The notes under the pieces: model-generated | Told to the model about the DNA's origin: nothing | Databases searched by the model: none | Seen by the model: the letters and a program-made list of their open reading frames with translations, nothing else | NCBI RefSeq assembly: GCF_003334785.1 | Contig: NZ_QOWV01000033.1 | Strand: one strand, 5' to 3' | DNA length: 9,889 bases | From: Escherichia coli | GTDB taxonomy: Bacteria; Pseudomonadota; Gammaproteobacteria; Enterobacterales; Enterobacteriaceae | Position numbers and translations under genes: made by a program | Shown: positions 1 to 3,094 of the stretch, one piece after another | Layout of the letters: each line of letters starts with the position of its first letter | Position numbering within the stretch: the stretch's first letter is position 1

Positions 1-337
1 GGGGTTCATCGCAGCAGCTACAGATACTGGAAAAACCGTCCTGAAAAACCAGACGGCAGACGGGCTGTATTACGCAGTCAGGTACTTGAGCTACATGGCA
101 TCAGCCACGGTTCGGCCGGAGCAAGAAGCATCGCCACAATGGCAACCCGGAGAGGCTACCAGATGGGACGCTGGCTTGCTGGCAGGCTCATGAAAGAGCT
201 GGGGCTGGTCAGCTGTCAGCAGCCGACTCACCGGTATAAACGTGGTGGTCATGAACATGTTGCTATCCCTAACTACCTTGAAAGGCAGTTCGCCGTGACC
301 AAGCCAAATCAGGTGTGGTGCGGTGATGTGACCTATA
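1..337 (+). CDS. orfB: IS3-family (IS911-like) transposase OrfB, exon 1; 5'-partial at window edge, interrupted by group II intron after ..GDVTY
   Basis: Frame 1 translation [112 protein letters not shown]. The track ORF 139..402 is this frame running through into intron sequence. Confidence 0.8.
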
Positions 338-993
338 GTGTGCCCGGAGTTCAGGGCGGGCATGGATGCTTAAATGAACCGCGAGTCTGTCTGGAATATT
401 GAACCGGTAACTCACGATGAGAAACCCAACAATCCCACCGGGTGTGACGGTGGAGAACCTGAGCGGCAGTGACCTGCGGCATGCCCGCAGGGTGATGTAA
501 CCCGCTGACAACGGGGATTGAGGCGAGATCACTAAGCCGAGATGATCCTCAAGGTTAAGTACTGAAAGGCTGAAGAACATGAACCCGTTAATCCGCCTCT
601 GTGGGTTGAAAACGTCACCACGGCCTACGTGATCTGACAGGCCGTGCAGGAGGAACTGGCAGTGATACGTAAGCACTGCCGGTCGAAGGTGTTTTGACAT
701 GTATGCGAAACACCGGGGCAGCAGCGTCTATCACGCTTGCGTTGCTGACTTCTGCCAACTTGCGGCAAGCAAGGATAAAGAGTGCGACGGGCAGCCTCCT
801 CAGTATGCCTGAGTCCAGGCAGGTAAACCGGGGAAGGTCAGCGACGGATGTTAAGGGGGCATGGCTCCGATGACGCGCTGGCTGGCGGAGCTTCCGTAGT
901 AGTCCGCGATGGGGAAAGCCCATTACATGGCGAAGGGAAGCAGTTTGAATGTGTTTGCGACGTGAATTAACTGGCCTAACGAGGTGAAGACCT

Positions 994-2517
994 TTGATAA
1001 TCAGCGAAATGCAACGCAAGCTTGCCACATGGGCAGCCACCGATCCGTCCCTACGGATTCAACGGCTGCTGCGTCTGATAACACAACCAGAATGGCTGGC
1101 TGAAGCGGCGCGGATCACGCTTTCATCAAAGGGGGCGCATACCCCCGGCGTTGATGGCGTGAACAAAACAATGCTACAGGCCAGACTGGCTGTTGAGCTG
1201 CAAATCCTCAGGGATGAATTACTCTCAGGCCACTACCAGCCCTTGCCCGCCAGACGGGTTTACATCCCTAAAAGCAACGGCAAACTGCAACCACTGGGTA
1301 TCCCCGCGTTGCGGGATCGTATTGTTCAGCGGGCCATGCTGATGGCGATGGAGCCGATATGGGAGAGTGATTTTCATACGCTCTCATATGGCTTCCGGCC
1401 TGAGCGCAGTGTCCACCACGCGATCCGCACGGTGAAATTACAGCTCACAGACTGCGGTGAAACCCGGGGACGCTGGGTGATTGAAGGCGACCTGTCCAGT
1501 TACTTCGACACCGTACATCATCGACTGCTGATGAAGGCTGTACGCCGCAGGATCAGTGACGCACGTTTCATGACTCTGCTGTGGAAAACCATCAAGGCGG
1601 GACATATCGATGTCGGTCTCTTTCGGGCGGCCAGTGAAGGTGTGCCACAGGGCGGTGTTATATCGCCGCTATTATCGAACATCATGCTGAATGAGTTCGA
1701 TCAATACCTGCATGAGCGCTACCTGAGCGGGAAAGCCAGAAAAGATCGGTGGTACTGGAATAACAGTATCCAACGGGGCCGAAGTACGGCGGTCAGAGAA
1801 AACTGGCAGTGGAAACCCGCGGTGGCGTACTGCCGCTATGCCGATGATTTTGTCCTCATCGTCAAAGGCACCAAAGCACAGGCGGAAGCCATCAGGGAGG
1901 AGTGTCGGGGTGTGCTCGAAGGCAGTCTGAAACTCAGGCTGAACATGGATAAGACTAAAATCACCCATGTTAATGACGGCTTTATCTTTCTGGGGCACAG
2001 GATCATTCGCAAACGCAGTCGTTATGGCGAGATGCGAGTGGTCTCAACGATCCCGCAGGAGAAAGCCAGAAACTTCGCCGCATCGCTGACAGCACTGTTA
2101 TCAGGCAACTACAGTGAAAGCAAAGTCGATATGGCTGAACAACTCAACCGAAAACTGAAAGGCTGGGCCATGTTCTATCAGTTCGTTGATTTTAAGGCCA
2201 AAGTCTTCAGTTATATCGACCGTGTCGTGTTCTGGAAGCTGGCTCACTGGCTGGCCCGCAAATACCGTACAGGTATCGCTTCCCTGATGAGGTGGTGGTG
2301 TAAATCACCGAAACCGGGTCAGAGCAAAACGTGGGTTTTATTTGGTAAAACCAATCACGGCAAGCTCAGCGGCGAAATACTGTACCGGTTGGTGGGGCAA
2401 GGCAAGAAGCTGTTCCGCTGGCGGCTACCCGAAGGTAATCCCTATCTGAGGACGGAGACCAGAAACACGTATACATCGCGCTTTACAGAAGTGGCAATGG
2501 CGTTCGCCAGCATTTAA
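994..2517 (+). CDS. Group II intron-encoded protein: reverse transcriptase/maturase (RT domains 0-7 plus X/maturase), no HNH endonuclease domain
   Basis: 507 aa; TPGVDGV (RT0), PLGIP/RIVQRAM (RT1-2), FHTLSYGFRPERSVHHA (RT3-4), YCRYADDFVLIV (RT5 YADD active site), maturase-like C-terminal region, no C-terminal H-N-H/Zn-finger motifs. Track start is TTG at 994, preceded by GAGGTGA (981-987) at good spacing; the first in-frame ATG is 1009. Confidence 0.9.
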   Translation: MIISEMQRKLATWAATDPSLRIQRLLRLITQPEWLAEAARITLSSKGAHTPGVDGVNKTMLQARLAVELQILRDELLSGHYQPLPARRVYIPKSNGKLQPLGIPALRDRIVQRAMLMAMEPIWESDFHTLSYGFRPERSVHHAIRTVKLQLTDCGETRGRWVIEGDLSSYFDTVHHRLLMKAVRRRISDARFMTLLWKTIKAGHIDVGLFRAASEGVPQGGVISPLLSNIMLNEFDQYLHERYLSGKARKDRWYWNNSIQRGRSTAVRENWQWKPAVAYCRYADDFVLIVKGTKAQAEAIREECRGVLEGSLKLRLNMDKTKITHVNDGFIFLGHRIIRKRSRYGEMRVVSTIPQEKARNFAASLTALLSGNYSESKVDMAEQLNRKLKGWAMFYQFVDFKAKVFSYIDRVVFWKLAHWLARKYRTGIASLMRWWCKSPKPGQSKTWVLFGKTNHGKLSGEILYRLVGQGKKLFRWRLPEGNPYLRTETRNTYTSRFTEVAMAFASI

Positions 2518-2522
2518 ATGGA

Positions 2523-2556
2523 GAGCCGGATGCGCTGAAAGGTGCACGTCCGGTTC
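2523..2556 (+). ncRNA. Group II intron domain V (catalytic hairpin)
   Basis: 34-nt hairpin GAGCCGGATGCGC-TGAAAGG-TGCACGTCCGGTTC with AGC triad and GNRA-type loop, immediately 3' of the IEP stop (2515-2517) and about 50 nt from the intron 3' end. Confidence 0.8.
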
Positions 2557-2607
2557 GGGGAGGAGAGGCAGGGAAATAGTCCGACTACGCCCTGCCTCTT
2601 ACTCTAC

Positions 2608-3086
2608 TCTGGACGGGTAAGCGCTGGGCGTACCTCGCCGTTGTTCTCGACCTGTTCGCAAGAAAACCAGTGGGCTGGGCCATGTCGTTCTCGCCGGACA
2701 GCAGGCTCACCATGAAAGCGCTGGAAATGGCATGGGAAACCCGTGGTAAACCCGGCGGGGTGATGTTCCACAGCGATCAGGACAGTCATTATACGAGCAG
2801 GCAGTTCCGGCAGTTATTGTGGCGATACCAGATCAGACAGAGTATGAGCCGGCGCGGAAACTGCTGGGATAACAGCCCAATGGAACGCTTCTTCAGGAGT
2901 CTGAAGAATGAATGGATGCCGGTGGTGGGTTACGTAAGCTTCAGCGAGGCAGCTCACGCCATAACGGACTATATCGTTGGATATTACAGCGCACTAAGAC
3001 CGCACGAATATAACGGTGGGTTACCCCCAAACGAATCGGAAAATCGATACTGGAAAAACTCTAACTCGGTGGCCAGTTTTTGTTGA
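2608..3086 (+). CDS. orfB: IS3-family (IS911-like) transposase OrfB, exon 2 (DDE catalytic core, C-terminal part)
   Basis: Frame 3 is open from 2580 and reads ..[116 protein letters not shown]. The track ORF 2670..3086 is the same frame counted from an internal GTG. Confidence 0.8.
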
Positions 3087-3094
3087 CCACTTCA
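3061..3094 (+). repeat. Right terminal inverted repeat of the IS911-like element
   Basis: CTAACTCGGTGGCCAGTTTTTGTTGACCACTTCA overlaps the orfB stop and ends in CA. Identification as IS911 IRR is from memory; the partner repeat is outside the window. Confidence 0.6.

Follow-up and report, generated by a model that had tools for sequence, protein, structure and literature searches.

An IS911 transposase gene interrupted by the group II intron E.c.I4 in Escherichia coli: probably a decaying product of intron homing rather than a splicing switch

Introduction

Does a transposase gene that is split by a group II intron form a switch, in which splicing licenses transposition, or is it a target that the intron entered and that has since been carried along? 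This question is raised by the first 3094 positions of a 9889-nt stretch of Escherichia coli DNA (contig NZ_QOWV01000033.1, assembly GCF_003334785.1), the whole of which is referred to here as the window. Window 1-3094 covers the rightmost 3.1 kb of a composite, 3519 bp long, in which a complete copy of the insertion sequence (IS) IS911 contains the group II intron E.c.I4. The first-pass annotation of this region regarded the transposase gene orfB as otherwise intact, so that only spliced transcripts would yield full-length protein; it proposed that IS activity is coupled to the intron and that the intron gains a ride on the IS. The intron does travel on an IS, and the dependence on splicing is formally sound, whereas the proposed functional switch is weakened by the evidence described below.

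We consider it probable that the composite is the recent, passive product of homing and is now a decaying relic, not a regulated switch. E.c.I4 would have retrohomed into a resident IS911 at its standard target, the DNA encoding the first catalytic Asp motif (D-V/F/I-T-Y), and the composite would since then have been a passive passenger on an IncFII plasmid. Its reading frames would be open only because the insertion is recent, and the copy appears to be decaying by missense change, through G289D in the transposase and an Arg-to-Gln (R>Q) substitution in the intron-encoded protein (IEP).

Results

The IS911 and intron parts of the composite occupy the following positions of the window:

1..337, + strand: 3' part of IS911 orfB exon 1, delimited by gapless alignment to uninterrupted IS911 and ending ...GAT GTG ACC TAT A
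338..2607, + strand: group II intron E.c.I4, bacterial class A, 2270 nt, 5' GUGUG ... 3' CUAC
2608..3086, + strand: IS911 orfB exon 2, starting TC TGG ACG, with its stop codon at 3084-3086; it encodes the second Asp and the Glu of the DDE triad
3059..3094, + strand: IS911 right inverted repeat, the reverse complement of the left-end sequence TGAAGTGG...

Excision of 338-2607 joins position 337 to 2608 with no indel and yields an IS911 of 1249 nt. Because the spliced sequence aligns with six uninterrupted annotated IS911 copies without a gap at the junction, the intron boundaries are fixed at 338 and 2607. The 3' end of exon 1 encodes the first catalytic Asp motif G-D-V-T-Y, and the spliced codons at the junction read GAT GTG ACC TAT A/TC TGG, or G-D-V-T-Y-I-W. 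The element ends at 3094 (...GACCACTTCA), and BLAST matches to other copies stop at 3094/3095. The correct annotation of the locus is a single interrupted IS911 with an E.c.I4 intron, not two partial transposase pseudogenes.

The 425 nt of IS911 that precede the window were read in a proxy record, E. coli FDAARGOS_1248 plasmid unnamed2 (NZ_CP069544.1), which differs from the window at 4 positions over 9400 nt (window 2492, 4789, 5717 and 6039). In this proxy (stretch 5576-6000), the left inverted repeat is intact (TGAAGTGGCACAC..., starting at NZ_CP069544.1 5576), so that terminal inverted repeats are present at both ends of IS911. The 100-codon orfA and the A AAA AAG slippery heptamer are likewise intact, and orfA and orfB lie in the 0 and -1 frames. 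In the upstream part, where the first-pass annotation had allowed for inactivating mutations, the proxy has no stop or frameshift in orfA. The orfB frame can be read without interruption through 148 codons up to the junction and through another 159 beyond it, as far as the normal C-terminus, which agrees with the earlier description of exons without stops or frameshifts. Aligned with reference IS911, the spliced copy shows 99.4% identity and 6 private substitutions. Its OrfB scores 304 bits against the NCBIfam IS3 transposase model NF033516 (cutoff 160), and the predicted OrfAB frameshift product is 389 aa long, with the catalytic residues D227, D287 and E323 present.

If the intron is retained, translation of exon 1 runs into one further feature:

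400..402, + strand: first in-frame stop (TGA) on reading exon 1 into the unspliced intron, closing the open reading frame 139..402

The unspliced message would accordingly be expected to yield a truncated product of 251 aa, comprising 230 OrfAB residues and 21 intron-encoded ones. As far as the sequence logic goes, it is formally correct that only exon ligation could restore the full-length OrfAB frame, as had been proposed together with this stop, and we infer that OrfAB production must depend on splicing in this class of composite. The stop lies 21 codons into the intron, however, and chance alone predicts 64/3, or about 21 codons; because it sits at this chance distance, it is no evidence of design. 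Nor is the lack of stops in the exons beyond chance, given just 6 private substitutions in 1249 nt.

The history of other copies bears directly on whether open exons imply a working transposase. One chromosomal IS911, flanked by adhesin-E/MFS genes on one side and a DUF2254 gene on the other, is intron-less in E. coli C. In CFSAN061762 and EF5-18-41, the IS911 at this site contains the intron and has flanks identical to those of E. coli C. Strain YJ4 carries an intron-less IS911 with the left flank of E. coli C and a different right flank. In the resident IS911 at the adhesin-E/MFS site (four loci), TTAAAAAGG replaces TTAAAAAAGG at IS position 324. The possibility that this A5G variant is an in-frame orfAB fusion was rejected, as re-translation shows that the sequence is one A short, that the slippery heptamer is destroyed and that orfB falls in the +1 frame; the copies are defective. 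Having no slippery heptamer, the resident IS911 can produce no OrfAB by -1 frameshifting. The RefSeq label of this resident copy, "IS911 family transposase, programmed frameshift", is probably an artefact of annotating a dead element. Since the same chromosomal IS911 occurs both empty and occupied, E.c.I4 homes into resident copies, even dead ones, and its occurrence in an IS whose frame is open therefore carries no information on selection for transposase function. The open exons of the window copy are for this reason read as a sign of recent insertion, not of selection.

Structural defects in the IS or the intron were found in 8 of the 11 composites examined (the window copy and 10 others). 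Two of the defective composites lack one A of the slippery heptamer, and three are broken at IS position 333/334 beside IS30, two of which also have an exon-2 premature stop or a C-terminal frameshift. The others comprise one truncated at IS position 382, one with a frameshifted exon 2 and one with IS421 inserted in the intron. IS30 recurs at one point just 3' of the IS911 slippery site on a chromosome, on two unrelated plasmids and at the K-12 ykfC locus; composite query positions 1-2526 match loci annotated ykfC in which IS30 lies inside IS911. Either an old IS911::IS30::E.c.I4 block has spread widely, or the position is an IS30 hot spot. The composite is common: at least 80% of window 1-3400 is present in 885 of 5426 complete E. 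coli genomes, and at least 80% of the full 3519-nt composite in 779 of the 5426.

No 3-bp target-site duplication is present around the window copy (flanks aac and att), whereas two of the uninterrupted copies do have such duplications (gag/gag and ctg/ctg). The composite is carried by an IncFII plasmid and has a fimbrial operon as its neighbour. A sister plasmid, pWP7-S17-ESBL-04_2 (NZ_AP022179.1), shares the fimbrial flank and the G>D allele described below; on it, an IS1203 insertion/deletion has replaced the middle of the composite, so that what remains is a fragment of orfA together with the 3' end of the reverse transcriptase (RT) gene.

Private changes were called by aligning the window composite with seven further composites and with six IS911 copies that have no intron. 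The six exon substitutions comprise four non-synonymous changes (OrfA K30N, OrfA A89V, OrfB E>K and OrfB G>D) and two synonymous ones, a pattern that, judged from sequence, is as expected under drift. The intron has 2 private substitutions in 2270 nt, at window 974 and 1289 (IEP R>Q). The excess in the exons (6/1249) over the intron (2/2270) gives a one-sided binomial p of ~0.03 by hand calculation and fits an intron that entered an already diverged IS. The changes that fall in codons of the window examined individually are the following:

2781..2783, + strand: GAC codon, G>D (window 2782 G>A; G289D), changing HSDQG to HSDQD
1288..1290, + strand: CAA codon, IEP R>Q in RT motif 2, changing NGKLRPLGIP to NGKLQPLGIP
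301..301, + strand: OrfB E>K, a private G>A within AVTEPNQVW, at a position that varies across IS3-family proteins

G289D lies two residues past the second catalytic Asp. A set of 74 IS3-family representatives of at least 255 aa was drawn from a search of 1.84 billion proteins, and 3 members that are non-homologous in this region were left out; Gly occupies the position in 71/71 of the remaining, diverse transposases. In the integrases of human T-lymphotropic virus 2 (HTLV-2) and avian sarcoma virus (ASV), its counterpart in the alignment is the D-N-G motif Gly. A 41-mer centred on the mutation finds the G>D allele in only 2 records of the E. coli collection, in which thousands carry IS911. 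The DDE-region motifs had been described as preserved. This stands for the three catalytic residues; in the wider context (D..TY, HSD-x-G, N..E), the invariant Gly of HSD-x-G is replaced by Asp. Given this change at an invariant active-site Gly, even a spliced message would probably give an inactive transposase.

A comparable substitution affects the intron. Among 8 copies, R>Q is private to the lineage of the window and NZ_CP069544.1, and only 6 E. coli records have the allele. The motif-2 Arg (K..G..R-P-L-G-I-P, in the RT fingers) is found in 5/5 of the structurally solved group II intron RTs whose alignments were shown, LtrA and GsI-IIC among them; to judge from retroviral RTs, it would contact the incoming nucleotide. 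With R>Q, the intron is probably no longer mobile by itself. Two other changes were considered as inactivating and rejected since homologues vary at these positions: OrfB E>K, which is probably benign, and OrfA K30N in the helix-turn-helix (HTH) region. OrfA A89V is a private C>T at window -87 (IS position 338; NZ_CP069544.1 5913) that is synonymous in orfB; it lies 8 nt 3' of the slippery heptamer, where the frameshift-stimulating structure of IS911 is expected. The absence of stop codons should thus not be equated with an intact gene, as comparison with the population and the family reveals missense decay at invariant residues.

The intron itself is a nearly unchanged member of a known lineage. 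Over the full 2270 nt, it is identical at 2262 positions (99.65%) to E.c.I4-2b of E. coli E24377A, a published copy listed at NC_009801 4848623-4850893 in the supplement of PMC3522654, and the two share the same IS911 junction. The reported homing of E.c.I4 is specific to IS3-like transposase genes, with IS629, IS911, ISEc16 and ISEc31 as hosts (Leclercq and Cordaux 2012, PMC3522654), and E.c.I4 is a class A intron without an endonuclease (En) domain (Toro and Martinez-Abarca 2013, PMC3552965). The ribozyme and protein features of the window copy are as follows:

994..2517, + strand: IEP, a reverse transcriptase/maturase starting at TTG 994 or ATG 1009 (507 or 502 aa)
2523..2556, + strand: ribozyme domain V hairpin with the AGC catalytic triad, from Rfam alignments and the fold
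2559..2605, + strand: ribozyme domain VI with a bulged branch-point A at 2601, from the Rfam alignment and the fold

The Rfam group II domain V/VI family RF00029 matches 2521-2607 with 64.9 bits (gathering threshold 40; E 2.7e-11), and an Rfam E-value search of the intron for domain I-IV families returned no match beyond domains V/VI. Relative to the consensus of the other copies, the sole non-coding change in the intron is at window 974. The IEP, which is annotated ltrA in NZ_CP069544.1, has RVT_1 (9.4e-33) and GIIM (1.3e-10) domains and a YADD motif, and it scores 336 bits against TIGR04416 (cutoff 300). In the domain scan, RVT_1 and GIIM were the only domains detected, and no endonuclease domain was found. 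Near the IEP C-terminus, window 2492 has the consensus T (Val), where NZ_CP069544.1 has G (Gly).

The insertion point and codon phase are identical in IS911, ISEc52, IS629, ISEc25 and another IS3-family element: in each, the codon that comes next after the first catalytic Asp motif, D-(V/F/I)-T-Y, is interrupted between its first and second bases. Exon-1 ends of IS911, IS629, ISEc25 and another IS3-family element were compared with a candidate for exon-binding site 1 (EBS1):

600..606, + strand: tentative EBS1, UGUGGGU, able to pair with the final 7 nt of exon 1 if G-U wobbles are allowed

UGUGGGU is the sole intron 7-mer that pairs 7/7, 7/7, 6/7 and 6/7 with the four host-IS targets. Because the local minimum free energy fold places 600-606 in a stem, the assignment remains tentative. 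Being composed of G and U alone, the candidate can accommodate transitions at synonymous positions of the D-x-T-Y coding block through wobble pairs, which may account for homing into IS3-family elements whose DNA is only distantly related. A search for EBS2 covered the first 600 nt of the intron and positions -7 to -20 of the four host ISs; it yielded no 5-7-mer able to pair with all of them. ATCACT (527-532), which was spotted by eye and suits one host only, was not adopted.

A low-GC fimbrial cluster extends 3' of IS911 over window 3470-9480, and its flank is common to only one other plasmid in PLSDB. Its genes are:

3470-4279, + strand: AraC-family regulator
4327-5151, - strand: AraC-family regulator
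about 5245-5424: small ANR-family regulator
5623-6129, - strand: CD15/CS22/SEF14-family major subunit
6231-8687, - strand: usher
8671-9480, - strand: chaperone

Discussion

Several observations argue for a recent homing product in decay: intron-less and occupied alleles at one chromosomal site, the decay alleles in both proteins, the missing target-site duplication, the deletion on the sister plasmid, the defects in 8 of 11 composites, and the precedent of the intron RmInt1. In the last of these, RmInt1 lies in the transposase gene of ISRm2011-2 and was measured to splice with an efficiency of 0.07% in its native host and of 0.016% in E. coli (PMC3035460). For E.c.I4, the searchable literature yielded no splicing data. 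Analogy with RmInt1 suggests that exons would seldom be ligated productively, and the net effect of the intron would then be to silence the IS, without gating it.

Some considerations weigh on the other side. All three open reading frames are free of frameshifts and stops, and both inverted repeats, the slippery site and every ribozyme hallmark checked are intact; function is not structurally excluded. RT active-site mutants of other IEPs are still able to promote splicing. The upstream 425 nt of IS911 come from the proxy record, not from the window, the 11 composites were picked by BLAST rank, not at random, and the excess of private substitutions in the exons over the intron is based on only 8 events.

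An adaptive version of silencing is the alternative that fares best, although we regard it as unlikely. Here the intron would act as a brake: inefficient ligation would silence occupied IS3-family copies, to the benefit of the host and of the persistence of the intron. Such restraint has been proposed and measured for RmInt1 in ISRm2011-2, whose authors hold that introns of this kind prevent, and do not license, the spread of the IS (PMC3035460; PMC4238363). For E.c.I4, Leclercq and Cordaux argued for hitch-hiking together with self-limitation through IS targeting and poor exon reconstruction (PMC3522654). The many secondary defects of occupied copies are in keeping with a brake, but they may merely reflect the age of the copies, and intron-less copies at the same chromosomal site are defective too. 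Restraint is in fact compatible with passive homing followed by decay, from which it differs mainly in claiming an adaptive role.

The conditional transposase expression put forward in the first-pass annotation goes further and would make the composite a working IS, with transposase produced only from spliced mRNA, activity gated by the ribozyme and the IEP, and the intron spreading by riding the IS. In its favour are open frames, an intact slippery site and two intact inverted repeats, as well as a canonical domain V, domain VI and branch A with a single non-coding ribozyme change (window 974), and the composite is very widespread. Nevertheless, we judge a gate to be decidedly improbable for this copy. 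The invariant active-site Gly is replaced, no target-site duplication is present, most composites examined are broken, and the stop at 400-402 sits where chance would put it. The prevalence is at least partly explained by homing into resident, even defective, IS911 copies, and splicing in the RmInt1 precedent was measured at well under one per cent. What stands of the earlier proposal is the formal dependence of the full-length frame on ligation; what is weakened, by G289D, by exons that are open by default, by the frequency of defective composites and by RmInt1, is the functional switch.

We give similarly little credence to a broader proposal, namely that E.c.I4 is adapted to parasitise the whole IS3 family, by targeting the first-Asp-motif DNA with a G/U-only EBS1 whose wobble pairing tolerates transitions in the target, and that occupied copies repress the family, either through negligible ligation or through a 251-aa OrfAB that poisons transposition in trans. 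If this were true, the intron would serve as a natural means of IS control and be more than a hitch-hiker. Least probable of all is a dominant-negative role in which the 251-aa truncated OrfAB binds IS911 ends or wild-type OrfAB and inhibits other IS911 copies in trans: the argument for it is the predicted product, which would keep the HTH, the leucine zipper and the first Asp without the rest of the catalytic core, the N-terminal DNA-binding and multimerisation regions of IS911 lying upstream of the junction, but this product is a prediction only, and the HTH region has the private change OrfA K30N, at a variable position.

Comparison with known systems

As an IS911 of the IS3 family, the window copy shares with uninterrupted annotated copies both inverted repeats, the 100-aa orfA, the A AAA AAG -1 frameshift site and an orfB with the DDE residues, at the 99.4% identity given above. 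It differs from them in the intron, in G289D at the invariant D-x-G glycine, in OrfA K30N, A89V and OrfB E>K, and in having no flanking 3-bp duplication. The intron agrees with E.c.I4 (also S.f.I1) of Escherichia and Shigella in its 2270-nt length, its IS911 junction and an IEP with RT and X domains and no En, and it is set apart by two private changes, IEP R>Q and window 974 in domain IV.

A more degraded relative is the E. coli K-12 ykfC / IS911A::IS30 remnant in the CP4-6 prophage region, which is likewise a composite of IS911 and E.c.I4; an E.c.I4 fragment is listed in MG1655 (PMC3522654). The K-12 ykfC copy ends prematurely within the RT gene and is split by IS30, whereas the window copy is structurally complete.

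A functional parallel is RmInt1 in ISRm2011-2 of Sinorhizobium meliloti, an intron that, like E.c.I4, lacks En and homes into an IS transposase gene. The two systems differ in intron class, IS family and host, and the value of 0.07% was measured in the RmInt1 system only. Whether transposase is made only after splicing was already asked and measured there, so that the idea of a splicing-dependent transposase is not new and has already been discussed for RmInt1 in ISRm2011-2. Measured splicing of E.c.I4 in IS911 would provide a second data point, after RmInt1, on whether introns of this kind license or silence the elements that they occupy.

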